The notes under the pieces are model-generated. The model did no database searches, was not told the DNA's origin, and saw nothing but the letters and a program-made list of their open reading frames with translations. From assembly GCF_020641055.1 (NCBI RefSeq), contig NZ_CP067345.1: DNA of 24,000 bases; one strand, given 5' to 3'. The translations under genes and the position numbers were made by a program. This DNA is from Clostridioides sp. ES-S-0010-02 (GTDB lineage Bacteria; Bacillota; Clostridia; Peptostreptococcales; Peptostreptococcaceae). Shown here piece after piece: positions 428 through 19,682 of this stretch (position 1 is its first letter; each line of letters opens with the position of its first letter).

Positions 428-1837
428 ATGGAAAATTATTTTGATAAGCAGGCAAAAGAACTCTATATTAAAGCTAGTGAAATTATAAATACTCATTCTA
501 TGTTAAAGGCAAATCGTGCTAATGAGAAATTTGAGGTAGATATACCAAAAGATTTTAAAGATGAATTTTTTAGTCTTGTAGATAAAGTTAGCTTAAGCCT
601 TATGGAAGAAAAAGATAATTTTTATGGCTATTTTTTGTTTCAGATGTCAAGAGAGATAAGATTTGATATAAGTAGTCCTACAGGTGTGAATTTTAAAGGA
701 GCTAAATACGTCATATACTTTAATCCAATAATTTTTTTAACTCTCAGTATAGAACAGATGGAAAGTACAATAAAGCATGAAATTTATCATATAGTATCTA
801 TGCATTTGGTAAGAGCAAAAGAATTAAAAGGAAAGTATAGTACATTAGCCATTAATATGGCAATGGATATAGTAGTAAATAAATATTTGAATAATTTACC
901 ACCATATGCTACTACTTTAGAATGGGTAAATCTAAAATACTCTCTAAAGCTAGAGCCATATGAACCTTTTGAGTATTATGTAGAAAAGATTCAAACTGAA
1001 TTAGATTTGTTAGAAGAGGATGAAGATGGTGAAGAAGATGATAGCGACAAGTATGGAACTATAGAAACTGATTATAGACCAGAAAAAACTCATGATATAT
1101 GGGAAGAATCCGATGATATAGATGAAAGAACTCTTAGAGAATTTACAGAGAAATTTATTGATAGTTCTCAAAAAGGTAAAATTCCAACACACTTAGAAAA
1201 CATGATAGCAGCCCTTAAAAATAGTAAAGGCGAATTACCATGGAATTTATATCTTAGTAGGTTAATGGGAACTGTTGAAAACAATAAAAAGAAGACTATA
1301 ACAAGGAGAAATAGAAGACAGCCTAATCGATTAGACTTAAGAGGAGAACTTAGAAGTCATAAAGCAGAAATAGCCGTTGCTATTGATATAAGTGGAAGTA
1401 TTAGTGATGAAGAATTTAAACAAGCAATTAAAGAAGTTCTTAATATAGTTAAAAATTATAATCATGAAATTACTATTATAGAGTGTGACAGTGAAATTAG
1501 ACGTGTATATAAAGCAAAAACTATAAAAGATATAAAAGATAGAGTTAAAATAGGTGGAGGCACAAAATTTACTCCAGTTTTCGAATATGCTAATAATAAA
1601 AAGATTAACTTATTAGTTTACTTTACTGATGGTAAGGGTGAAAATAAGCTACAAGTAATACCTAGAGGTTATAAAGTTTTATGGGTTATCTCTGGAAATG
1701 GAGATAAACTTTCACTGAGAGAGCATTATGGAGCAGTTAAAAAACTTAGTAAAGTTGAAACAAAAGATGATATATTAGAGATAAACGATATTAGAAATGA
1801 TGGATACTCAATGAATAGTCAAGCACCAATTTTATAA
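428..1837 (+). CDS. Putative metallopeptidase-like plus VWA-domain protein (DUF2201-type architecture).
   Basis: 469 aa ORF. It has an HExxH motif (TIKHEIYHIVSMH), an acidic linker (EEDEDGEEDDSD) and a C-terminal VWA fold with the MIDAS motif DxSxS (AIDISGSISDEE). It is coupled to the upstream CDS. Confidence 0.8.
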   Translation: MENYFDKQAKELYIKASEIINTHSMLKANRANEKFEVDIPKDFKDEFFSLVDKVSLSLMEEKDNFYGYFLFQMSREIRFDISSPTGVNFKGAKYVIYFNPIIFLTLSIEQMESTIKHEIYHIVSMHLVRAKELKGKYSTLAINMAMDIVVNKYLNNLPPYATTLEWVNLKYSLKLEPYEPFEYYVEKIQTELDLLEEDEDGEEDDSDKYGTIETDYRPEKTHDIWEESDDIDERTLREFTEKFIDSSQKGKIPTHLENMIAALKNSKGELPWNLYLSRLMGTVENNKKKTITRRNRRQPNRLDLRGELRSHKAEIAVAIDISGSISDEEFKQAIKEVLNIVKNYNHEITIIECDSEIRRVYKAKTIKDIKDRVKIGGGTKFTPVFEYANNKKINLLVYFTDGKGENKLQVIPRGYKVLWVISGNGDKLSLREHYGAVKKLSKVETKDDILEINDIRNDGYSMNSQAPIL

Positions 1838-1905
1838 ATATTATAATGGGTATGATTGTTATGATTTGTTCGATTGTTATGGTTTACTTACTATCCAAAT
1901 TAATG

Positions 1906-1945
1906 AAAAATACATTGATTAATAGTCAATGTATTTTTTATTATT
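1906..1945 (+). terminator. Rho-independent terminator after the VWA gene.
   Basis: AAAAATACATTGA (1906-1918) pairs with TCAATGTATTTTT (1926-1938) around a 7-nt loop and is followed by a T-rich tail. Confidence 0.7.
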
Positions 1946-1964
1946 TAAACAATAAAAGTTTTAC

Positions 1965-1994
1965 TTAGCTTAAACTCTCAAAATATGGTACAAT
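1965..1994 (+). promoter_or_regulatory. Candidate sigma-A promoter for the CarD-like gene.
   Basis: TTAGCT (1965-1970), an 18-nt spacer, then TACAAT (1989-1994) preceded by a TG (extended -10, TATGGTACAAT). Confidence 0.35.
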
Positions 1995-2069
1995 TAGTAT
2001 ATAGTAGATAGTTTTGATGATGTAAATTCAGTTGTCAAAACTATTTTTTGTTAAGGATGGTGAGGTTTT

Positions 2070-2567
2070 GTGTTTAAGATTGATGATTATATAATGTACG
2101 GAATGACAGGTGTTTGTAAAGTTTTGGACATAACAAACGAAAAAATTACAAATGGTGTACAAAAAGAATATTATGTATTAAGTCCCCTTTATTCTAATAA
2201 TACAATAATAAAAATACCTGTTGATAATAAGAAAGTTCCAATGAGAAAGATACTTTCTGAAGTTACTGTGGCTTCGCTAATAAATGATATACCTAATATG
2301 GATACATCATGGATAGATAATGAAAAAATGAGAAGTGAGCAATTTAAAGTGATGCTTAGAAGTGGTAAGTGTGAAGAGTTACTTAAATTAATAAGAAGTA
2401 TATACTGTAATAAAGAACATATAAAATCTCTTGGTAAAAAATCACATCAAGCAGACGATAATATGATGAAAGAAGCAGAAAGATTATTAAACGAAGAGTT
2501 TGCAACTGTTTTGAATATTTCTCCTGATGAAGTTACTTCATATATATCAAGTCATATACCGCAATAA
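2070..2567 (+). CDS. CarD/CdnL/TRCF-family transcriptional regulator.
   Basis: 165 aa with a GTG start after the SD GGTGAGG. The N-terminal motif FKIDDYIMYGMTGVCKVLDI...EYYVL is typical of the CarD_CdnL_TRCF RNAP-interaction domain. Confidence 0.8.
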   Translation: MFKIDDYIMYGMTGVCKVLDITNEKITNGVQKEYYVLSPLYSNNTIIKIPVDNKKVPMRKILSEVTVASLINDIPNMDTSWIDNEKMRSEQFKVMLRSGKCEELLKLIRSIYCNKEHIKSLGKKSHQADDNMMKEAERLLNEEFATVLNISPDEVTSYISSHIPQ

Positions 2568-2949
2568 AGTATTTTTTATATTATCTCCTACTTAAAAAGT
2601 ATAGCATAGTTAAAACTATAAAGAAAAAGAAAATAATATTTAAATATAATTTTACAATAAGTATTTATGAATATTTTATTGCTATTTTTAATTATTTCAG
2701 AATATTATTTATTCGCATTGTTTTACTAAAAATTGAATATATAATATTATAGGAATTGTTAAAATGATGTTTATAATATACAATTCTTAAAAAATTAAAT
2801 TATTATTGAAAATACTTTTTAATCAAGGGGATGATTGAATGGTAAGTTTAATAAGCATGTTGAAAATCTGAAGTAAAATTAATAATATTATAAGAGTATT
2901 ATCATTTAAAATATATGACAATATAAAATATATTCTAGTGTTAATTGAT

Positions 2950-2992
2950 AAGGTGACTACTATATTAAATAGAAGTCACCTTATTTAATTTT
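2950..2992 (+). terminator. Orphan rho-independent terminator-like hairpin inside the long spacer.
   Basis: AAGGTGACT (2950-2958) pairs with AGTCACCTT (2974-2982) around a 15-nt loop, followed by ATTTAATTTT. Confidence 0.5.
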
Positions 2993-4972
2993 ACCTACAT
3001 CGTAAAAACTTATATTTTATTAAAGTAAAATAGGCTCATTTAAGTTACACATAGTTTTAATTTCTATGTAAAAAATTTTATTTTCAGCTTCATATAAACA
3101 AACTTTTAACTTAAATTTATCCAGATTATTATTTTTATATTATTGCTAGAATTAAGTATATTACGAAGATGTTTTTAAATATTAACATTAAATTATTTGG
3201 AATTATACTAATATAAACATAAGCTATATTTATTATAAATACTACAATTTAGCTATTTATTTAAGAAATAATTATTTTTTATAAATGAAAACATAGATTA
3301 GATAAATGCTTCTAGCTTAGAAGAGTACATTATAAATATAATCGACAAAATAAGACTAAATATATCTTTATAATTTGAATTGATATATTTGCTGTATATT
3401 TATAGTGTAACTTGAAAAATTATAGATATACAAAATTTAGAGTATTTCTAAAATAGTAATATATAATAATTACTATAGTTTGTTTTTAATCAAACTTTTT
3501 TATTTTAATTAAGTAAATATTAAGTTAACAGATAAAAAATGATGGATTTTAAGGAATTTAAATTTATTAAAAAAGTATTTACTACTTTTGTTGTATTTAT
3601 TTAACAATTTTATTGATTGTGTATTTAGAATAATTATGATTAGGTGTAAATTTAGAATTTATAAGTTTAAGAAATAAAGTTATATCTTAAAGGTGAAGTA
3701 TCTCTACTATTCTAAAAATTAATGAAATTTATTAAATTAATCAAAAAAATAACAATCATTTAAAAGTTAAAAATAGTTAATTAAAATTGATTAGAATATC
3801 CTTTTTTTTTATTTTATCATTGATAATATTTCTTAAATAATAAATGTTATTTGGTGGAGTATAGTCTAAATAATATAAGTTGCATATCAAAAACCTATCC
3901 AATAAATAATATGAATACATAGAACAACAAAATTTCATATCTAAAAAACTATTTTGAGACTTAGTTTAACTTATATTTCCAGACAAAAAAATTATATAAT
4001 ATACTTGACAAGTATAATTTGATTTATTCTAATTATTTACTGTCGATTATTCGATTTTTTTCTTATTTTTTTGTTGCATATAAGTATGTGTTTATGGTAC
4101 GATTTACATGGTGAAATAAATAAAGGGAGGTGAAAAATAAATATTCGTGAAAAAGTTTTCAAATTGAGGTATTTTATGGTTAATAAATTATAATAGTATC
4201 ACCTCAATTAATAATGTCAAAGCGAATATCTAGGTAATCACTTTAAAACAACAGTTTTTATATTTAGGTTCACAGAATTCATGTGTATGTTTAACAAGAA
4301 ATAAATTTAATCTGTGAAGAGATAGTAGTTTATTTATTTAAGTTGACAAGTAATTGAATGAAGTATTTAGAAATTTTTCAAAAAAATAAAGACAGTATTT
4401 ATTTGTATAAATACATGTTGCTTTATTCAAAACTCCTTTAAAAAGGCAATAGTAAGGTGATTACACCGTTTGCCATAAAAGGAGGAATTTAGTTTGTAAA
4501 ATACTATCAAGTAAAAAAATAAGAATTGCATATAGTAAAGAGTTTCACATTTAATTAGTAGTAGTTAAATTAGAAAAAATTACTAGAGTGATGAATTTAG
4601 AAGTTAGATATAAAATTATCCATTGTGTTATGGCAATATTGTATTTAAGCTAAATAATAATTAATGAACTAATAATTTATAGTTTGGTTTTTTGTGGTGT
4701 CAATTTATAAAGATAACAGGTTATAAATATACCTGAAAATAATGAATTTATATAATTTAAATTTATAGCTATATTATTTTGAATTTATTGACAATAAAGA
4801 TGTTAATCTTTATTCCATGAAAACATCTAGATTCTACAAATAAAAACGCAATTATCTTAATAATTATTACGAATTGTTTTACAAAACAATATCACCATAT
4901 CTTTCATTGAAAGAAAGAGTCTGGATAAAACGTAGAAAATATAAAAATACAATTAAGAAAGGATTTAAACTT

Positions 4973-6328
4973 ATGAGCACAACAGTAAATAAAAAGGGTA
5001 AATTCCCTATAGGATTTTATATCTGTGCAACAACTTTCTCGTTTGAAAGAGCAGCATATTATTCTGCAAAGTTTTTAATTTATATATTCCTTACAACAGC
5101 AATTGTTAAAGGTGGTCTTGGAATAGATAAAGGACAAGCAGCTATAATGCAAGCTAACCTTGTTGCATTCACATATCTTGCGCCAATAATTGGAGGATAT
5201 ATATCAGATAGATGGATAGGAGCTAGGTATACTATACCTATAGGTATGCTTATCATGGGGATAGGATACTATCTTGGTTCTATTGCAACTACAGCTTCTA
5301 TGGTAAATGCAATGATAATTCTAGTTTCAATTGGTACTGCATTCTTTAAAGGAAATGTATCAGCAGTAAATGGACAACTTTTTGATAATCAAGAAGAACT
5401 TGATACAGCATTCTCAGTACAATATTCTTTTGTTAATATAGGTTCTTTCATCGGAACAACAGCAGTAGGTATACTTTATGCCAATACATTCATGAAAAAT
5501 GGAGTATATGGTTTCTCTCAATGTTTCTTCATAGCAGCTGTTCTTTGTGTAATTGGTGCAATATGGTTCACATATGGATGGAGATTCCTTGGAAATGCAG
5601 GAAAAAGACCTTTTAAAGAAGGTGTGGTAGCTGAGAAAGTTGAAGAAAAAGATAATGCTCCTCTTACAAGTATGGATAAGAAGAGAATTTGGGCTATTAT
5701 ACTTATTTCATTCTTCTCTGTAATTTTCTGGTTATTCTGGTATCTAACTTATCTTGCAGTTTATGATTATGGTGCAGCGTTTGTAAACATGACTATTGGA
5801 GGATTTGACATTCCTTTAGCTTGGTTTGACTCATTAAATGCACTTGTATGTATTGTACTAGGTCCAGTTCTTGGAGCGTTATGGTTTAAACTTGCCAGTA
5901 GACCACAAGGTGATATAAGTTTATTTAAAAAGACAGGTCTTGGATTAATATTCTTAGGTCTTGCATTCTTAATGCTTGTTGGAGCAGAGCTTACAAGAGG
6001 TGTTGGAGCTCCTGAAACTGTTAAAGCTAGTATAATATGGATAATTATGTTTGGTATACTTCTAAGTTTTGGAGAAATGTTATTCTCACCACTTGGGAAC
6101 TCTTTCGTAAGTAAGTATGCTCCTAAAAAACTTCTAGGTGTTCTTATGGGAGTTTGGACATTTGCTACTTTTATAGCTGGTCAAGGATATGGATATATAT
6201 ATGCATTTACTCTTAAATTTGATATGATTAAAGTATATACTATAATTCCAGTGATACTATTTGTTGCAGCTATATTATTATTCTTATTTGACAAGACATT
6301 AAGTAAACTTGTTGAGGAAGATAACTAA
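4973..6328 (+). CDS. dtpT: POT/PTR2-family proton-dependent di/tripeptide permease.
   Basis: The start is moved from the listed TTG at 4874 to the ATG at 4973 (SD AAAGGA, 9 nt upstream). The product has multiple TM helices and the PTR2 signature GGYISDRWIGARYTI. An ExxER-like region (FSFERAAYY) lies near the N-terminus. Confidence 0.85.
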   Translation: MSTTVNKKGKFPIGFYICATTFSFERAAYYSAKFLIYIFLTTAIVKGGLGIDKGQAAIMQANLVAFTYLAPIIGGYISDRWIGARYTIPIGMLIMGIGYYLGSIATTASMVNAMIILVSIGTAFFKGNVSAVNGQLFDNQEELDTAFSVQYSFVNIGSFIGTTAVGILYANTFMKNGVYGFSQCFFIAAVLCVIGAIWFTYGWRFLGNAGKRPFKEGVVAEKVEEKDNAPLTSMDKKRIWAIILISFFSVIFWLFWYLTYLAVYDYGAAFVNMTIGGFDIPLAWFDSLNALVCIVLGPVLGALWFKLASRPQGDISLFKKTGLGLIFLGLAFLMLVGAELTRGVGAPETVKASIIWIIMFGILLSFGEMLFSPLGNSFVSKYAPKKLLGVLMGVWTFATFIAGQGYGYIYAFTLKFDMIKVYTIIPVILFVAAILLFLFDKTLSKLVEEDN

Positions 6329-6532: not shown

Positions 6533-7414
6533 TTAATACACAATTTCTCCACTTAAAATAGTATAGGCGCTTCCTCCAATTTTTACAGAAGTGATATCAT
6601 TGTTTTCTTTACATATATTTACATATACCTTTCCAGGTCTATTTATGAAGTTTCCTTCTTCACCAATAAAGTCAGTTTTATCTAAAATATTGTGTTGTAC
6701 TATATAAGATGATACACAAGCATTGCCAGTTCCACATACAGGGTCTTCTGTGACTCCAACATATGGAGCTATAGATCTTAAATGATAGTCACAATTTTTA
6801 TCTATAGTTTCTATACAAAATGGAGTTATTCCAATTAGATTATTATCAGCACTAAATTCTTTTATTTTATTTAAGTCTGGAGAAATATTTTCTAAATCAT
6901 CTAGAGACTTTAATCCAAAAACAAGCCACCAAATTCCTGTATTTACTTTCATAATTGGATATTCAAGAAGTCTATCTTCTTTTACACCTATCATTTGTGC
7001 AATCTCTTTTTTATAGCTATTTAGATTTTCGAATTTAGGAGGATTTTGTTCCATCATAAATATGTTTTCATTATCTATTTCCTTAAGTTCTACAGATAGT
7101 ACACCAGCTTTTGTCTCTTGATAAAAGATATTCTTATTAGTATTAAGTTTTCCTTCTTCTAAAAGAGCATGGAATGTTCCTATTGTAGCATGACCACACA
7201 AGTCAACTTCTAAGCCAGGTGTGAAAAATTGAACCTTGAAATCTGCTACATCAGATTCTGAAACAAATGCAGTCTCTGATAAATTCATTTCCTTTGCTAT
7301 ATTCTGTTTGATTTCGTCAGAAATATTGGATGCATCAGTGACTACACCAGCAGGATTTCCTCCAAAAGGTATTGTTGTAAATGCATCAACTTGTTTGATT
7401 TTAACTTTATTCAT
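6533..7414 (-). CDS. PhzF-family (phenazine biosynthesis-like) isomerase/epimerase-fold protein.
   Basis: 293 aa. The N-terminus VDAFTTIPFGGNPAGVV and the motif NLSETAFV are typical of PhzF/YddE-family proteins. Confidence 0.8.
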   Translation of the reverse strand: MNKVKIKQVDAFTTIPFGGNPAGVVTDASNISDEIKQNIAKEMNLSETAFVSESDVADFKVQFFTPGLEVDLCGHATIGTFHALLEEGKLNTNKNIFYQETKAGVLSVELKEIDNENIFMMEQNPPKFENLNSYKKEIAQMIGVKEDRLLEYPIMKVNTGIWWLVFGLKSLDDLENISPDLNKIKEFSADNNLIGITPFCIETIDKNCDYHLRSIAPYVGVTEDPVCGTGNACVSSYIVQHNILDKTDFIGEEGNFINRPGKVYVNICKENNDITSVKIGGSAYTILSGEIVY

Positions 7415-13755: not shown

Positions 13756-13817
13756 ACTTTAAAGAAGTTGTTTCAGTTTAAATTGAAATTATATGAAAAA
13801 TATTTAAATTACACGAA

Positions 13818-13858
13818 AATGAGCTACAGTTGGGGGGAACTGTAGCTCATTCTATTTT
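13818..13858 (+). terminator. Strong rho-independent terminator of the TCS/ABC operon.
   Basis: A perfect 14-bp stem: AATGAGCTACAGTT (13818-13831) pairs with AACTGTAGCTCATT (13838-13851) around a GGGGGG loop, followed by CTATTTT. Confidence 0.85.
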
Positions 13859-14478
13859 GGGGGAGATAGGTTGAACTTATTGGTTATCCGTATCATATTT
13901 TTAGTATAGTCACTTATTTTAGATTATATACATTTTTTTATAAATTTTACATAAAATGTTAAATGTTATAATTGCTTAGATATTATTAGAAGTGATAAAG
14001 TTATAATTAGAGAAAATTAATGAAAAAATGTATTATAAATAATTGGAAAATATTATATAAGGTATTAAAATATTAATGTATTTACAGCAATTTAGGAAAA
14101 AATACGAAATCTATTCATAAATACAAAATAAAAATATAATTTAAAAAATATTTGATAAAAATTTCATATAAAGAATATTTTATATTAATCTCATTTTAGG
14201 TATATCTATTAAAAAAAAACTTATAATACAATATAATTTAAATTTCAATAAATACTTAATAAATGCGCATTTAGATACTTGAAAATACTGGAAAATATAT
14301 GGTGTAATAAAAAATCTTGAATAACTTTAAAGAATTGAATATATATAATAAATATTTAAATATATTTGAATAAAAAAATACAAAAAACGACAATTATATA
14401 GTGCACAATTAAAATATTTTGCAATTGTAGTATTATAGGGGAAAATGCAAAATATATGCGAAAGTGAAATTTTAAATA

Positions 14479-14507
14479 TTGACATTAAATTAAATATAAT
14501 ATACTAT
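14479..14507 (+). promoter_or_regulatory. Candidate sigma-A promoter of the antiterminator gene.
   Basis: TTGACA (14479-14484), a 17-nt spacer, then TACTAT (14502-14507), about 40 nt upstream of the GTG start. Confidence 0.45.
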
Positions 14508-14546
14508 GTAAGTGTGATGAAACATTTTTTTCAGAGGGGATTTATA

Positions 14547-15383
14547 GTGAATATAAAAAAAGTATTTAATAACAATGTAGTAGTAAGCTCCCTAGAAGAT
14601 GGCACAGAAATAATTGTAACTGGTGCTGGAGTTGGATTCAAGAAAAAAGTAGGAGATTTGATAGATGAAAGTTTGATTTCTAAGAAATATTTTGTTCAAG
14701 ATAATCAAAAAGACAAATACAATCAAATACTTAATAAAACCTCAATTGAATATTTTAAAATTTCAGAAGAAATTATAGAAAAAGCTAATGAAGTTTTAAA
14801 TACTCAAGTAAATGATTCAATAATATTGGCTTTAACTAGTCACATAGAATTCGCTGTCCAAAGAGAAAAACAGGGTATAAAATTACCAAACCTGATACTT
14901 AATGAAACAAAACAACTTTATAGAGAAGAATTTGAATTTGGATTATGGGCAATTGATGAAATTGAAAAAAAGATAGGTATAAAGTTGCCTGAAGATGAAG
15001 CAGGCTATATTGCTATTCATATAATCAATGGATTAGAAAATTCTCAAAAAGATGAAGGTATTAATATACTAGAGTTTTCAAAACAAGTTGTTCAGATAAT
15101 AGAAGAAGTACATGGATTTAAATTAGATGTAAACTCACTGAATTACTCTAGGCTTATAACTCACTTAAAGTTTTTCGTTCAAAGAATTTTAAGAAAAGAA
15201 ACTTACAAAGATAGTGATGTTGAAGATATGTATAAACTAGTAAATAAAAACTATAATAAACCTAAAGTATGTACTGAAGAAATTGCAGCATTGGTATTAG
15301 ACAGATTTGAATATAAAATTAGTAAAGAAGAAGAATTATATCTAATGATTCATATAAATAAAATAACAAACAGTGGTTGTTAG
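14547..15383 (+). CDS. BglG/LicT/SacY-family PRD-containing transcription antiterminator.
   Basis: The start is moved to the GTG at 14547 (SD AGAGGGGA, 14533-14540). The N-terminal CAT domain reads VNIKKVFNNNVVVSSLEDGTEIIVTGAGVGFKKKVGD, and two PRD-like regions carry conserved His contexts (LTSHIEFA, IAIHIIN, LITHLKFF, LMIHINK). Confidence 0.9.
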   Translation: MNIKKVFNNNVVVSSLEDGTEIIVTGAGVGFKKKVGDLIDESLISKKYFVQDNQKDKYNQILNKTSIEYFKISEEIIEKANEVLNTQVNDSIILALTSHIEFAVQREKQGIKLPNLILNETKQLYREEFEFGLWAIDEIEKKIGIKLPEDEAGYIAIHIINGLENSQKDEGINILEFSKQVVQIIEEVHGFKLDVNSLNYSRLITHLKFFVQRILRKETYKDSDVEDMYKLVNKNYNKPKVCTEEIAALVLDRFEYKISKEEELYLMIHINKITNSGC

Positions 15384-15460
15384 GATTGTAACTGATAAAG
15401 CAGGCAAAACCTAAGTCATTGAACTTAATTTTAGTTAAGTTTTTTGATTTAGGCTTTTTT
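15383..15460 (+). promoter_or_regulatory. RAT/terminator switch, unit 1.
   Basis: The RAT is GGATTGTAACTGATAAAGCAGGCAAAACCTAAG. The terminator arms are CCTAAGTCA (15410-15418) and TGATTTAGG (15445-15453), followed by CTTTTTT. The RAT overlaps the antiterminator TAG stop by 1 nt (G15383). Confidence 0.85.
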
Positions 15461-15484
15461 ATTGAATACAGACAGTGACTTTTA

Positions 15485-15564
15485 GGATTGTAACTGGTTA
15501 AGCAGGCAAAACCTAAATCATTGAACTTAATTATTAGATTAAGTTTTTTGATTTAGGTTTTTTT
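15485..15564 (+). promoter_or_regulatory. RAT/terminator switch, unit 2.
   Basis: The RAT is GGATTGTAACTGGTTAAGCAGGCAAAACCTAAA. The terminator arms are CCTAAATCA (15512-15520) and TGATTTAGG (15549-15557), followed by T7. Confidence 0.85.
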
Positions 15565-15588
15565 ATTAAATAAACACAATGGCTTTTA

Positions 15589-15668
15589 GGATTGTAACTG
15601 ATTGAGCAGGCAAAACCTAAATCATTGAACTTAGTTATTAGATTAAGTTTTTTGATTTAGGCTTTTTT
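15589..15668 (+). promoter_or_regulatory. RAT/terminator switch, unit 3.
   Basis: The RAT is GGATTGTAACTGATTGAGCAGGCAAAACCTAAA. The terminator arms are CCTAAATCA (15616-15624) and TGATTTAGG (15653-15661), followed by CTTTTTT. Confidence 0.85.
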
Positions 15669-15692
15669 ATTAAATACAAACAGTGACTTTTA

Positions 15693-15770
15693 GGGTTGTA
15701 ACTGGTTGAGCAGGCAAAACCTAAATCATTGAACTTAGTTATTGGATTAAGTTTTTTGATTTAGGTTTTT
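15693..15770 (+). promoter_or_regulatory. RAT/terminator switch, unit 4.
   Basis: The RAT is GGGTTGTAACTGGTTGAGCAGGCAAAACCTAAA, with an A-to-G change at position 3. The terminator arms are CCTAAATCA (15720-15728) and TGATTTAGG (15757-15765), followed by T5. Confidence 0.8.
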
Positions 15771-15817
15771 CTATAAATTAGATTATGTTTTTTATATAAA
15801 AATAGGAGGGTGAAAAT

Positions 15818-17395
15818 ATGAAAAAAAATAAGTTAGGTCTATGGAATTTCTTCCAAATGTTAGGAAAAACGTTTATGTTCCCAATAGCATTACTTAGTGT
15901 TTCTGGTATGATGCTAGGTCTTGGGGCTGGTTTTACAGATCCTAAGATGATTGCAATGGTTCCATTTCTAGGAAATGAATATGTTAATATGATTTTAAAT
16001 TTCATGTTAACAATAGGATTATTTGCATTTAATAACTTGGGAGCATTATTTGCAATGGCAATTCCATTAGGATTATTAAAAAAAGAAAAAGAGTTTGGTG
16101 CATTTTCAGGTTTAGTAGGATTTATAGCAATGCATATAGGTACAAATTTTTATTTAACAAGAGCTGATTTATTAGTAGCAGCAGACCAAATGTCAACTAA
16201 TGGTCAAGCCATGATTATGGGTATACAAACATATAACACAAGTGTTTTAGGTGGTATTATAGCAGGTTTAATTGTTTATGCAATGTATGATAAAGTTAGT
16301 AATTTGAAAATACCAGAATCACTAGGATTCTATAGTGGACCAAGATTAGTTCCAATTGTTAGTTTAATAGTTATGAGTATTGTGGGATTATTAATACCTA
16401 TTGTTTGGCCACCATTTTTCAATGCGTTCCAAAGTTTAGGAAGATGGATTTCTTCAGCAGGGCCATTAGGATATTTCTCATATGCAGTAGCTGAAAGGGT
16501 TACAATACCATTTGGATTAAACCACCTTGTAACATCTGTATTCCGTTTTACACCAATAGGTGGAACTGCTGTTATTGATGGAGAAACATACTTTGGAACA
16601 TTGAATATGTTTATGGCATATGTGGAGAATAATCAGATTATACCTCTTGATTTAGCTGGTAAAATGGAGCAAGGTAAATTAATGATTCAATATGGTTTGG
16701 CTGGAGCTGCATTAGCTATATATCGTACAGCAAAACCAGAAAATAGAAAAGCACTTAAAGGACTTTTAATATCAGGAGTGTTGACAGTTATTATAGGTGG
16801 AATAAGTGAACCAATAGAGTTTTTATTCTTATTTATCTCACCAGCATTATTTGCTTTCCATACATTTATGAATGGTTTAGCAAACATGGTACTTCCATAC
16901 TTAGGTGTATTAATGGGATTCACAGGAGATTTAATAGCATTTATAAGTTTTGGAGTCTTGAGAGGAACAGCTACAGGATGGCCAATAGCAGTATTAGTAG
17001 CAGCTTTATACTTTGCAATATATTACTTTGTATTTAAATGGGCAATTCTTAAATTTAATATAAAAACTCCAGGACGTGAAGATAAAGAAATAAAAGTTTC
17101 TGAAGGAAATGGTTCAGATTTTAAAAATCTATCTACATACAAAGGTCAGCAAATGATAGCAGCACTAGGAGGGAAATCTAACATACTATCATTAGACAAT
17201 TGTGTAACTAGATTACGTTTAAAATTACAAGATGTATCACTAATAAATGAAGATGCAATTAAAGAAGCTGGTGGTATAGCAGTTGTTAAATTAGATGAAC
17301 ACACAATTCAAGTAATTATAGGTACTCAAGTGTATTCTTTAAGAAAGCAAATGGATAAGGCGATGGAAGGTCATTTGGAGGAATGTAATGATTAA
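15818..17395 (+). CDS. PTS EIICB component of the glucose/maltose (Glc) family, MalX/PtsG-like.
   Basis: 525 aa with the SD AGGAGGG at 15804-15810. The N-terminus LWNFFQMLGKTFMFPIALLSVSGMMLGLG resembles MalX/PtsG EIIC. The C-terminal EIIB domain carries the phospho-cysteine motif LDNCVTRLRL. Confidence 0.9.
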   Translation: MKKNKLGLWNFFQMLGKTFMFPIALLSVSGMMLGLGAGFTDPKMIAMVPFLGNEYVNMILNFMLTIGLFAFNNLGALFAMAIPLGLLKKEKEFGAFSGLVGFIAMHIGTNFYLTRADLLVAADQMSTNGQAMIMGIQTYNTSVLGGIIAGLIVYAMYDKVSNLKIPESLGFYSGPRLVPIVSLIVMSIVGLLIPIVWPPFFNAFQSLGRWISSAGPLGYFSYAVAERVTIPFGLNHLVTSVFRFTPIGGTAVIDGETYFGTLNMFMAYVENNQIIPLDLAGKMEQGKLMIQYGLAGAALAIYRTAKPENRKALKGLLISGVLTVIIGGISEPIEFLFLFISPALFAFHTFMNGLANMVLPYLGVLMGFTGDLIAFISFGVLRGTATGWPIAVLVAALYFAIYYFVFKWAILKFNIKTPGREDKEIKVSEGNGSDFKNLSTYKGQQMIAALGGKSNILSLDNCVTRLRLKLQDVSLINEDAIKEAGGIAVVKLDEHTIQVIIGTQVYSLRKQMDKAMEGHLEECND

Positions 17396-18569
17396 CTTTG
17401 ATAAAAAAGTAAACCGATTGGGTACATATTGTACCCAATGGGATTATGTAGAAGATAGATTTGGAAAAAAAGGATTACTTCCTTTTACAATATCAGATAT
17501 GGATTTGGAATTTCCAAATGAGATAACAGAAGTATTGAAAGAAAGATTAAATCATAGAGTATTAGGATATAGCAGATGGAAGCATGATGATTTTAAAGAT
17601 TCTATCAGAAATTGGTACTCTAAGAGATTTAATTGCAGTATTGATAGCAATTGGATATATTACAGTCCAAGTGTAATGTATTCAATTAGTAAACTCATTG
17701 AAATTTTTAGTGATGAAGGAGATGGAGTATTACTAAACACTCCTGCATACAATGCTTTTTATGAAGTAATAGGAAATAACAATCGCAATATTATAAAATC
17801 TCCTCTTACAAATAAGAATGGATTTTACTCTATTGATTTTGATGATTTTGAGAAAAAATGTAAAGATTCTAAGATATTTATTTTATGCAATCCTCATAAC
17901 CCAACAGGTAGGGTGTGGAGTGAATTAGAGCTTATTAAGATGGTAAGGATTTGTAAGGAAAATAATGTAAAAATAATATCAGATGATATACATATGGATA
18001 TTGTATATGATAGTAAAATGACACCTGTTTTAAATGTGGCAGACAATTATTTGGAGTCTATATTTATTTGTACATCAGCATCTAAGTCTTTTAATATACC
18101 AGCATTGACTGGGTCATATGTAATTATACCTAATGAAGAGATAAGAACTAAGTTTGAAAATATAACTAGATATCGTGATTTTGTAAATTCACCAGCTATA
18201 CTAGCTATTTTGGGAACAATGACTTGTTATAATGACTGTGAATATTGGCTAGATGAGTTACTGAAATACATTAAAGAGAATCTTCAATATACAATTAACT
18301 ATATAGAAGATAATTTAAAGCCATTAAAATTGGTTATGCCAGAAGGGTGTTACTTTGCTTGGATTGATTTCTCGGAACTTAAAATAAGTAGTGAAAAATT
18401 CCAAAATCTATTAATAGATATTGGTGAAGTTGCTATTATGGGAGGCAAGGTATATGGAGAAGAAAGTGAGTTTTATTTGAGGTTAAATGTGGCATGTTCA
18501 AGAGAAAAACTTGAAGATGGTTTAAATAGAATTAAAAAAACTATAGATTATATTGCAAAAAATATTTAA
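17388..18569 (+). CDS. MalY/PatB-like PLP-dependent C-S lyase (aminotransferase class I/II fold).
   Basis: 393 aa. The N-terminus DKKVNRLGTYCTQWDY, the motif CNPHNPTGRVW and the PLP-lysine context TSASKSFNIPAL are typical of MalY/PatB cystathionine-beta-lyase-like enzymes. It overlaps the EIICB stop by 8 nt. Confidence 0.85.
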   Translation: MINFDKKVNRLGTYCTQWDYVEDRFGKKGLLPFTISDMDLEFPNEITEVLKERLNHRVLGYSRWKHDDFKDSIRNWYSKRFNCSIDSNWIYYSPSVMYSISKLIEIFSDEGDGVLLNTPAYNAFYEVIGNNNRNIIKSPLTNKNGFYSIDFDDFEKKCKDSKIFILCNPHNPTGRVWSELELIKMVRICKENNVKIISDDIHMDIVYDSKMTPVLNVADNYLESIFICTSASKSFNIPALTGSYVIIPNEEIRTKFENITRYRDFVNSPAILAILGTMTCYNDCEYWLDELLKYIKENLQYTINYIEDNLKPLKLVMPEGCYFAWIDFSELKISSEKFQNLLIDIGEVAIMGGKVYGEESEFYLRLNVACSREKLEDGLNRIKKTIDYIAKNI

Positions 18570-18588: not shown

Positions 18589-19188
18589 ATGAACTATTTA
18601 AAAACAATGGTTGATGTTATGACTACTGAAATGAATGCTATAAAGTGTTTAATAGATGAAGCAGGTATTGAATATGAAAATATAGTTAATGAAATTGCAA
18701 ATTGTAAAGGTAAAGTGATTTTTATGGGTGTAGGTAAATCTGCACATATAGGTAAAAAATTGGCAGCTACATTTGCAAGTACTGGTACACCAAGTTTTTT
18801 TGTACATGCAACAGAGGCAGTACATGGAGATTTAGGAATGATTGAAAGTCGAGATATTACAATTTTAATCTCAAATAGTGGTAATTCTATGGAAGTTGTA
18901 AATTGTATAAAATATGTTAAGGCAATAGGTTCTAAAACAATTGCTTTTACCTCAAATAGAAATTCAGTATTGGCAAAGGAGTGCGATTATGCTTTAATAT
19001 ATCCTGCAAAGGGTGAAGCTGACCACTTAAATTTAGCACCAACAACATCATCTACGATTACTTTGGTTTTAGGAGATTCTATTGCATGTGCATTATCTAA
19101 AAACAGTAATTTTGACTCAGCTGATTTTTATAAATATCATCCAGGAGGAAGTTTAGGTGAAAAACTAAAGGCAGCTAATAATGGTTAA
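18589..19188 (+). CDS. Single-SIS-domain sugar-phosphate isomerase, KdsD/GutQ (arabinose-5-phosphate isomerase)-like, with no CBS pair.
   Basis: The start is moved to the ATG at 18589 (SD AAGGGGAG). GVGKSAHIGKKLAATFASTGTPSFFVHATEAVHGDLGMI, LAPTTSSTITLVLGD and HPGGSLGEKL closely parallel the SIS domain of E. coli KdsD as I recall it. The protein ends right after the SIS domain. Confidence 0.8.
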   Translation: MNYLKTMVDVMTTEMNAIKCLIDEAGIEYENIVNEIANCKGKVIFMGVGKSAHIGKKLAATFASTGTPSFFVHATEAVHGDLGMIESRDITILISNSGNSMEVVNCIKYVKAIGSKTIAFTSNRNSVLAKECDYALIYPAKGEADHLNLAPTTSSTITLVLGDSIACALSKNSNFDSADFYKYHPGGSLGEKLKAANNG

Positions 19189-19211: not shown

Positions 19212-19682
19212 ATGTTTAAAATGTTTAAGAAAAAATCAATAAAATCACCAATATCAGGAAAGGTAATAGAGTTATCTAAAATACCAGATGCTGTATTTTC
19301 TCAAAAACTTATGGGCGAAGGTGTAGCTATAGATTCTACAGGTGATATTGTTTATGCTCCATATAATGGTAAGGTGGCAGTTTTAGCAGAAACTAAACAT
19401 GCACTTGTTATAGAATTAGAAAATGGAATGGAACTTCTTATTCATGTTGGTTTAGATACTGTAAACTTAAAAGGTGAAGGATTTGAAGCATTAGTAAGTG
19501 TAGGAGACCAAGTAAAAGAGGGGACACCAATGTTAAAAATTGACCGTTCATTAATTGAATCAAATGGTATCTCACTTATTACTCCAGTTACAATAACTAA
19601 TCATTCGGAGTACAATATGAATACATATAATGTAGGTAATAATGTAGAGGGTGGAAAAGATACTGTAATTGAGTTTAAATAA
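19212..19682 (+). CDS. PTS EIIA component of the glucose family (Crr-like).
   Basis: 156 aa. DAVFSQKLMGEGVAI, TKHAL and IHVGLDTVNLKGEGF are the canonical EIIA-Glc motifs, including both active-site His residues. Confidence 0.9.
   Translation: MFKMFKKKSIKSPISGKVIELSKIPDAVFSQKLMGEGVAIDSTGDIVYAPYNGKVAVLAETKHALVIELENGMELLIHVGLDTVNLKGEGFEALVSVGDQVKEGTPMLKIDRSLIESNGISLITPVTITNHSEYNMNTYNVGNNVEGGKDTVIEFK

Follow-up and report, generated by a model that had tools for sequence, protein, structure and literature searches.

A stretch of 24,000 nucleotides from Clostridioides sp. ES-S-0010-02 (NCBI RefSeq assembly GCF_020641055.1, contig NZ_CP067345.1; hereafter the window) carries four head-to-tail copies of a unit of 102-104 nt between a gene for a BglG/SacY-family antiterminator and a gene for a MalX-like EIICB permease of the phosphotransferase system (PTS). 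Each unit has its own ribonucleic antiterminator (RAT) element, its own long hairpin and its own T-run, so that a sensor and an expression platform are present in every repeat. Couples of a RAT and its antiterminator are a textbook single-switch mechanism. We consider it likely that in the window four such attenuators, each complete in itself and acting independently of the others, stand in series and are gated by the antiterminator encoded next to them. What we describe is a known mechanism in multiplied form, and not a new mechanism.

The array was recovered as a single call by Tandem Repeats Finder (15361-15778; period 104, 4.0 copies, 89% matches, score 645), and an independent repeat search returned four copies at spacings of 102, 104 and 104 nt. 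Together with a motif scan, these searches place the copies at 15383, 15485, 15589 and 15693, which agrees with an earlier sequence-only reading of this DNA. The same reading had also correctly seen that the first copy begins at the last base of the TAG stop of the antiterminator gene (15381-15383, with G15383 as base 1 of RAT 1), that 8 of the 104 positions differ between copies 2 and 3 and that a Shine-Dalgarno sequence, AGGAGGG, precedes the EIICB gene at 15804-15810. The homology between repeats reaches 22 nt into the antiterminator gene, as seen both in the alignment and in the start of the Tandem Repeats Finder array. Apart from a 21-aa antisense open reading frame (ORF) that overlaps the end of this gene, there is no ORF of at least 20 aa inside the array. 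At 15777-15793, the sequence ATTAGATTATGTTTTTT is a 94% copy of the 3' inner arm of the terminator, beginning 36 nt past the copy that belongs to unit 4 itself; a partial fifth unit may have left this relic.

The four RATs are defined by the motif GGATTGTAACTG-N6-CAGGCAAAACCTAA, which occurs with 0, 0, 0 and 1 mismatches at the four copy starts, at no further site on either strand of the window, and in none of 100 shuffled sequences. Written as the primary-sequence pattern GGNUUGUNACUG-loop-CAGGCAARACC, which also retrieves known Bacillus-type leaders, the RAT gave four matches with 0-1 mismatches, and the SacY/LicT-type consensus that had been noted in each unit is indeed there. Outside the loop, the window RATs differ at one position from the Bacillus-type RAT of locus L017 (GGATTGTTACTG...CAGGCAAAACCTAAA). 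When folded in isolation, the RAT 30-mers adopt the structure ((.((((..(((......)))))))..)) at -3.8 to -4.7 kcal/mol (-8.0 in unit 4, with a slightly different lower stem), that is, the hairpin with two internal loops that characterizes these elements, and none of 13 distinct Clostridioides units has a non-standard pair among the 9. By itself, the RAT hairpin does not exceed shuffled sequence in stability, which is expected for a RAT stabilized by protein. The apical loops read earlier as ATAAAG, GTTAAG, ATTGAG and GTTGAG, and the A-to-G change at position 3 of copy 4 (A3G), are as described. Even with 3 mismatches allowed, the window contains no RAT upstream of the antiterminator gene.

The minimum free energy (MFE) structure of every unit is a long AU-rich terminator hairpin followed by a run of five to seven T. 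Folding of each unit in its RAT and terminator forms, which the sequence-only reading had proposed as a check, predicts the long hairpin in all four (z -3.3 to -5.7), and the AAT/AGT change in the inner terminator stem keeps its pairing as G.U in the alignment and the fold, as that reading had held. The overlap between RAT and terminator consists of the 3' CC of the RAT plus, in units 2 and 4, an A-run; its length is 2 nt in units 1 and 3, and 6 nt in the other two. When the RAT was forced by constrained folding, the basal two C-G pairs next to the T-run were lost, at a cost of 4.8-7.8 kcal/mol; by analogy, this loss upon RAT formation would follow the logic of the Bacillus subtilis licS switch (PMC5393181). 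Long terminators of low GC content downstream of RATs have been shown to be functional in the bgl operon of Clostridium acetobutylicum (PMC12628678), and the long AU-rich terminators of the window resemble them.

The regulator and its target are also those expected of such a switch. The antiterminator has Pfam matches to CAT_RBD (3.3e-19) and to two PRD domains (5e-36), aligns to the LicT structures 1TLV, 1H99 and 6TWR, and conserves all four PRD histidines (H100, H159, H207 and H269 of LicT), so that a cognate CAT-PRD1-PRD2 protein with four phosphorylatable histidines lies beside a PTS permease target. Pfam and NCBIfam domains and the LicT alignment thus bear out the arrangement proposed earlier, with a PRD antiterminator gene upstream and a PTS operon downstream. 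Against the NCBIfam LicT equivalog NF046042, the protein scores 285.4 bits, under the cut-off of 300, and it is best described from its sequence as a member of the BglG/SacY family for which the name LicT should be avoided; its setting beside a MalX-type PTS suggests a sugar other than that of LicT. We take GTG 14547 (278 aa) as the start of the gene because the family alignment, a Shine-Dalgarno sequence, AGAGGGGA, and the gene calls in related genomes agree on it. The longest ORF begins at ATG 14445 and encodes 312 aa, and the candidate promoter falls inside this spurious N-terminal extension. The promoter block is kept between the window and mainstream Clostridioides difficile, and the DNA farther upstream is not. 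The only candidate inside the 3' end of the gene, TTGGTA-17-TAAAAT at 15291-15319, was rejected as a conserved start: its -10 element is TAAGAT in mainstream C. difficile, and the site is absent in Terrisporobacter.

In the mechanism we propose, transcription would start at the promoter at 14479-14507 and run through the antiterminator gene, after which the transcript would meet four consecutive intrinsic terminators within 390 nt. At each unit, the 3' nucleotides of the nascent RAT hairpin would also belong to the terminator stem, at its base. During transport of the PTS substrate, the antiterminator would be dephosphorylated by the PTS and form an active dimer, which would capture the RAT before the 3' arm of the terminator has been made and hold the shared nucleotides, allowing the polymerase to pass the T-run; in the absence of substrate, the terminator would fold and the transcript would end there. 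With the decisions arranged in series, read-through probabilities would multiply, and the PTS, lyase and isomerase genes would be almost silent in uninduced cells even though the regulator gene is expressed. A very low floor of this kind would amount to insulation of these genes from a promoter that must stay on for the sensor to be made. A minimal model with purely illustrative per-unit read-through of 10% uninduced and 90% induced gives, for one and four units respectively, a leak of 1e-1 and 1e-4, a fold range of 9 and about 6,500, a maximum output of 0.90 and 0.66, and a log-log sensitivity of 0.5 and 2.0.

Comparison within the genus indicates how long the array has been kept. The window comes from a divergent Clostridioides lineage, because proteins identical to its own are limited to about 10 genomes (GCA_0206584xx and CP061361.1), the DNA of the locus is 92% identical to that of C. 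difficile HC132, and the antiterminator is 96% identical to the mainstream C. difficile protein. Four units are found in three lineages, among them the complete chromosomes CP061361.1 and OX246690.1. The seven NCBI genomes that carry the EIICB of the window all have four units and the same 434-nt spacer, and C. difficile HC132 and chromosome OX246690.1 also have four. Three units are found in strain CD160, a draft assembly in which repeats may have collapsed, and in mainstream C. difficile (two contigs of ~4 Mb and three metagenome contigs among them); in mainstream C. difficile, the periods are 115 and 114 and arise from a 10-11-nt insertion in the spacer. No Clostridioides genome sampled has fewer than three units. 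The variation in copy number for which a search of related genomes had been suggested therefore exists, as three or four units depending on the lineage, and both numbers occur among the cryptic lineages. Short-read contigs of the locus from Logan and ENA (L008-L010, L044/L045) start or stop inside a RAT, either 104 nt short of the EIICB ATG or 141 nt past the stop codon of the antiterminator gene, and contigs of P0002 end inside unit 2 and hence give no copy number; because such repeats fragment assemblies, copy number in draft genomes is unreliable.

The units are positional orthologues and did not arise by concerted evolution: first units group with first units of other lineages, middle with middle and last with last, with private signatures in the first (CCTAAGTCA) and the last (TTTTTCTAT), and one middle unit has 82 nt that are identical across four lineages. 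Orthologous units differ by 3.7-7.7%, whereas the two flanking genes differ by 10-17% at their third codon positions (P 3e-4 to 3e-9), so that the array diverges at about half the rate of synonymous sites. Across the 13 distinct units, all 9 RAT pairs are invariant, variation occurring only in the apical loop and, in a single case, at position 3 (the A3G change, private to the window's lineage); the terminator is 97% paired, with 8 of 9 variable pairs still standard, mostly as wobbles, in some or all variant units. Loss of a RAT, a stem or a T-run was seen in no unit of any lineage. This comparative evidence makes it likely that the array is functional. Furthermore, because three to four units occur in all sampled Clostridioides lineages, as positional orthologues diverging at about half the synonymous level, we think that the multiplicity has been maintained by selection and is not a strain-specific accident.

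The orthologous locus of the sister genus Terrisporobacter suggests how the array arose. In Terrisporobacter mayombei (L032), the antiterminator is 69% identical and followed by the same four downstream genes, and the order is promoter, RAT/terminator, antiterminator, RAT/terminator and the four genes (5600-5850; 6837-6925). The leader has a perfect TTGACA-17-TATAAT promoter and then a RAT with a terminator hairpin of ~30 bp (-38.9 kcal/mol); between regulator and EIICB there is a single RAT/terminator, which begins at the stop codon as in Clostridioides. The two Terrisporobacter terminators, at -32 and -38.9 kcal/mol, are far stronger than those of the window, at -22 to -27 each, and their inner-stem sequences are wholly different yet perfectly paired. 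The spacers of units 2-4 in Clostridioides keep a '...TTT TAG' that resembles the gene end of Terrisporobacter, whereas the Clostridioides gene now ends in 'TGT TAG'. The duplication copied gene end, RAT and terminator together, in situ, and is older than that substitution. A candidate from Clostridium paraputrificum (P0014, 48% identity) was rejected as an orthologue, being a non-orthologous locus without RATs.

The same layout of two attenuators has been described for the bgl operon of C. acetobutylicum (PMC12628678). Escherichia coli bglG-bglF, C. acetobutylicum bglGTH and the Terrisporobacter locus share with the window the protein family, the RAT logic and the order antiterminator, RAT/terminator, PTS; they differ in that their RAT/terminators flank the regulator gene, whereas the window has none upstream and four downstream (three to four in Clostridioides). 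The Clostridioides array replaced an ancestral bgl-type layout in a lineage-specific exchange, with the upstream attenuator lost and the downstream one multiplied. The insulation of the PTS genes from the antiterminator's own promoter, which the sequence-only reading had proposed, gains support from this comparison, since the promoter would lie directly before the gene, with no RAT upstream and three to four units downstream. Weak, AU-rich terminators fit tight control by number rather than by strength.

Serial RAT/terminators are rare but recurrent outside this locus, where 'rare' is a qualitative term, the search pattern being strict and single-RAT leaders uncounted. A scan of one genome per species in 185,579 species, for an exact pattern of two RATs 50-80 nt apart, returned 12 loci, 3 from Clostridioides representatives and 9 from other Bacillota, in which two units, or three RATs (Peribacillus, Neobacillus), precede genes for PTS EIIB or HPr. 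A further 11 loci came from a metagenome scan. Hosts of tandem RATs include Anaerocolumna, Brevibacillus laterosporus, Domibacillus, Salinicoccus, Bacillus glycinifermentans and Peribacillus kribbensis, along with the metagenome loci L034, L035 and L036. On the reverse strand of L034 (metagenome Ga0307409, 1647-3060), a RAT/terminator, a licT-like gene and a promoter are followed by three serial RAT/terminators and a PTS EIIB gene; this independent, promoter-proximal triple array has spacings of 116 and 167 nt and unrelated terminator sequences. In L035 and L040, a double array follows directly after the antiterminator stop codon. Like the window, these leaders place two to three RAT/terminators in series before PTS EIIB or HPr genes, but most have two units, their own promoter and divergent terminators that do not stem from recent repeats; among the loci found, four units occur only in Clostridioides, as does a near-perfect tandem repeat reaching back into the regulator gene.

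Two further arrangements were seen among these leaders. In L035/L040 and in L018 (Peribacillus kribbensis), no obvious terminator follows the last RAT, which stands directly before the Shine-Dalgarno sequence of the PTS EIIB gene; this RAT may act on translation or mRNA stability instead of termination. In L021 (Neobacillus sp. Marseille-Q6967, reverse strand, 4310-4480), a single terminator follows three RATs that are nearly identical and recur every 43 nt, an arrangement distinct from serial attenuators.

The nearest conceptual precedents are attenuators repeated in series in other systems, such as B. subtilis thrZ, with three repeated T-box domains, and tandem TPP and glycine riboswitches. 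Tandem T-boxes and riboswitches likewise line up complete attenuators for the same signal in one leader, and they are thought to sharpen or deepen regulation; they sense tRNA or metabolites directly, whereas the sensor in the window would be a PTS-controlled protein. A C. difficile gene preceded by two T-boxes has been described (PMC11477304). The B. subtilis LicT/licS-bglPH and SacY/sacB systems have a near-identical RAT type (as in L017), a regulator to which that of the window aligns, and a RAT that overlaps the base of the terminator (PMC5393181). Their leaders have one unit with its own promoter directly upstream and, in licS, an overlap of 8 nt (PMC5393181), compared with four units and 2-6 nt in the window. 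In addition, LicT serves a beta-glucoside PTS, whereas the PTS of the window is of MalX type and its regulator falls under the LicT cut-off (285 vs 300). Within the library searched, we found no description of tandem RATs, of any protein-dependent RAT array or of this intergenic region: a 2025 antiterminator review mentions neither 'tandem' nor 'difficile', and the locus is not mentioned in Soutourina 2013, in a 2024 review of C. difficile riboswitches or in the text of Fuchs et al. 2021. The novelty claimed for the array therefore stands insofar as no published multi-RAT array was found, and falls insofar as the design is not unique, given the three units of mainstream C. difficile and the double and triple leaders of other Bacillota.

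Several results weigh against four serial, independently acting attenuators. The overlap between RAT and terminator is short, units 1 and 3 sharing 2 nt, and when the RAT is forced a truncated hairpin persists; the earlier description of each unit as a mutually exclusive switch is thus right about a complete RAT, hairpin, T-run and overlap, and too strong about exclusion, since only 2-6 nt are shared and the truncated hairpin is compatible with the RAT. A consensus terminator scan called none of the four hairpins. This scanner accepts only uninterrupted stems with 3 or more G-C pairs, and because the stems in the array are interrupted and GC-poor, we judge the result to be a limit of the scanner and not an absence of terminators. 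Within Clostridioides, where there is too little variation for covariation statistics to be informative, the RAT pairs never vary and the terminator does not exceed shuffles; pairing is judged instead from the wobble changes that preserve it and from the different but still paired stems of Terrisporobacter. No match in the window reached Rfam gathering thresholds. RF03530 (bglG-cis-reg, defined on another bgl locus of C. difficile, CD3117-5) scored 28 bits in the best unit against a threshold of 80 (E = 0.019), so that the array is not counted as a member of that family, and RF02430 (the SpF19 small RNA) scored 27 against 60; permissive E-values also produced chance microRNA matches on the hairpins. 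Both families combine a RAT-like hairpin with a long terminator, and the window units align to them end to end; with scores far under the thresholds, the array is left unlabeled by automated annotation.

The model and the literature on C. difficile add two further difficulties. The 10-90% Hill coefficient in the model is 1.0 for one unit and ~1.3 for four, a small gain in steepness. The multiplication of read-through by serial switches, as the sequence-only reading had it, is reproduced by the model for leak and range, and the 'steep' induction it predicted is overstated; because the Hill coefficient rises so little, the main predicted benefit would be a low floor and a wide range, and not a Hill-type threshold. 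The locus is apparently CD3031-CD3027 of C. difficile 630, judged by the matching gene set and the literature on those genes, and the malY gene of this operon (CD3029) has been reported as essential in strain 630 (PMC6143707); in laboratory media there would therefore have to be substantial read-through or another promoter.

The second of these options corresponds to an alternative in which a promoter in each spacer, or after unit 4, transcribes the PTS operon and only the last unit or units matter. The essentiality of malY, which needs expression in rich medium (PMC6143707), is in its favor, and look-alikes scoring 8/12 can be picked out by eye in the spacers (TTGATT-17-TACAAA) and after unit 4 (TTGATT-17-TAGATT). 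However, no plus-strand promoter-like site of at least 9/12 occurs in 15320-15980, the region as a whole is no richer in such sites than shuffled sequence, and the last T-run is only 34 nt from the Shine-Dalgarno sequence. In both genera the first RAT lies directly against the stop codon, an arrangement that would have left no room for a separate promoter in the ancestral single-unit state, and we regard this explanation as very unlikely. A main promoter downstream of unit 4, which had been named as an observation that would overturn the array model, is accordingly not predicted from the sequence. A different view holds that the RAT/terminators are real but that the extra copies are redundant relics, a neutral by-product of slipped or unequal recombination with no added effect. 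Near-identical tandem repeats are indeed typical of replication slippage or unequal crossing-over, copy number is three or four by lineage, and Terrisporobacter has one unit at the same position. Such neutrality is nevertheless hard to reconcile with the age of the array, whose positional orthologues are common to lineages with 10-17% synonymous divergence, with its evolution at about half the synonymous rate, with the intact RAT, stem and T-run of every unit in every lineage, and with the presence of at least three units in all Clostridioides genomes sampled; nor can recent duplication explain serial RAT/terminators with non-homologous terminators elsewhere (L034). We therefore find the relic explanation unlikely.

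The repeated RATs might instead serve as a sponge, titrating the antiterminator on short terminated RNAs and on the mRNA, and so set a threshold or dampen other loci. Four putative high-affinity sites lie on the same RNA as the regulator, paralogous LicT-like regulators exist in the genus (P0088, P0091, P0113, P0115), and the Neobacillus locus L021, with three RATs before a single terminator, demonstrates that RATs can be multiplied without their terminators. In Clostridioides, purifying selection acts on the terminator and T-run that every RAT retains intact, parts for which a pure sponge would have no use; we consider a sponge quite unlikely as the explanation of the array, and it could coexist with serial attenuation, with which it is compatible. 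Least probable of all, to our mind remotely so, is signal integration, in which different antiterminators would read different units as an AND gate, like tandem riboswitches with different ligands. The loops do differ among units, unit 4 has the A3G change in its lower internal loop, and there are several BglG-family paralogues in Clostridioides. Apart from A3G, which is limited to the window's lineage, stem and internal-loop positions are identical in all units and lineages, and the work of Schilling in 2006 and of Hübner in 2011 reportedly placed the determinants of RAT specificity in B. subtilis in the internal loops and lower stem and not in the apical loop, which argues against this possibility.

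Starting from serial attenuation, it is tempting to go further and to hypothesize that Clostridioides dropped an autoregulatory attenuator upstream of the antiterminator gene and selected three to four weak downstream RAT/terminators as a protein-gated gate with multiple checkpoints, proofreading-like and near-digital, over an operon with a reportedly essential and strongly biofilm-induced gene (malY), that the gain and loss of units (from three to four and back) would be an evolutionary tuning knob, and that serial RAT arrays would be an unrecognized, recurrent design of PTS regulation in Bacillota. We offer this extended proposal tentatively and regard it as somewhat doubtful.

The coordinates of the array and of the genes around it are collected in Table 1.

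Table 1. Features of the RAT/terminator array and the associated genes, with positions in the window.
Feature	Position	Strand	Remarks
Candidate sigma-A promoter, TTGACA-17-TACTAT	14479-14507	+	Promoter scan 10/12; ~40 nt before GTG
BglG/SacY-family antiterminator gene	14547-15383	+	278 aa, GTG start; CAT, PRD1, PRD2
Left edge of the duplicated unit	15361-15382	+	Last 22 nt of the antiterminator gene, homologous to the spacers preceding RATs 2-4
RAT 1 (loop AUAAAG)	15383-15411	+	Exact motif; hairpin fold with two internal loops
Predicted terminator 1	Hairpin 15410-15453, then C and U6 15455-15460	+	MFE -21.7 kcal/mol, z -3.3
RAT 2 (loop GUUAAG)	15485-15513	+	Exact motif, fold, invariant pairs
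Predicted terminator 2	Hairpin 15508-15561 including A4/U4 extension; U7 15558-15564	+	MFE -26.9 kcal/mol, z -5.7
RAT 3 (loop AUUGAG)	15589-15617	+	Exact motif, fold, invariant pairs
Predicted terminator 3	Hairpin 15616-15661, then C and U6 15663-15668	+	MFE -23.0 kcal/mol, z -4.3
RAT 4 (A3G, loop GUUGAG)	15693-15721	+	One motif mismatch; alone folds at -8.0 kcal/mol as G3 pairs
Predicted terminator 4	Hairpin 15716-15769; U5 15766-15770	+	MFE -27.0 kcal/mol, z -5.3
Shine-Dalgarno sequence AGGAGGG of the EIICB gene	15804-15810	+	34 nt past the last T-run; ATG 15818
MalX-like PTS EIICB gene	15818-17395	+	Pfam PTS_EIIC, PTS_EIIB; TIGR02004 malX 568 bits, under the 632 cut-off
PatB/MalY-type C-S lyase gene	17388-18569	+	TIGR04350 345 bits (cut-off 340); 8-nt overlap with the EIICB gene
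SIS-domain sugar-phosphate isomerase-like gene	18589-19188	+	199 aa as called in relatives; Pfam SIS; KpsF/GutQ 202.6 bits vs 203.7 cut-off
PTS EIIA(Glc) gene, operon end	19212-19682	+	Pfam PTS_EIIA_1 1.3e-48; TIGR00830 138 bits, cut-off 97.5

The counterpart operon of C. difficile 630 has been described as a glucose/maltose-type PTS with malY, and in biofilms malY was the most up-regulated gene (20-fold), with PTS genes up-regulated up to 17-fold (PMC6143707). CD3030 has been named MalX (PMC3445491), and CD3031 appears, with a cre site, among the regulatory genes controlled by CcpA (PMC3510511).

Upstream of the antiterminator gene lies an AT-rich intergenic region of ~790 nt (13760-14546), with a 27-nt tandem repeat at 14128-14194 (2.5 copies) and a 20-nt repeat at 13782-13819; its conservation with mainstream C. 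difficile is limited to the last ~130 nt, promoter block included. At 13818-13851, this region contains a perfect hairpin of 14-16 bp with flanking T and A runs, a predicted terminator on both strands, which probably ends the upstream ABC-transporter genes and separates them from the antiterminator locus. Elsewhere in the window, 2.3 kb of extremely AT-rich DNA (2568-4873), flanked by an ORF of 165 aa and a transporter-like gene with an ORF of 484 aa, contain no tRNA, no Rfam match and no ORF exceeding 53 aa.

If protein-gated attenuators are stacked here as we propose, chains of three to four complete switches would indicate that protein-dependent attenuators can be multimerized in the same way as T-boxes and riboswitches. 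Stacked RAT/terminators could also serve as a low-leak part for synthetic biology. Because the array is unlabeled by Rfam and short-read assemblies break inside it, such arrays are probably under-reported, and differences in copy number between strains have perhaps been missed. Terrisporobacter, C. difficile and the cryptic Clostridioides lineages provide a natural series of one, three and four units in which leak, range, threshold and noise could be compared. Finally, if the locus is CD3031-CD3027, the array would control a malX PTS together with a malY gene that is reportedly essential and induced in biofilms (PMC6143707), which would make serial attenuation relevant to the biology of C. difficile.

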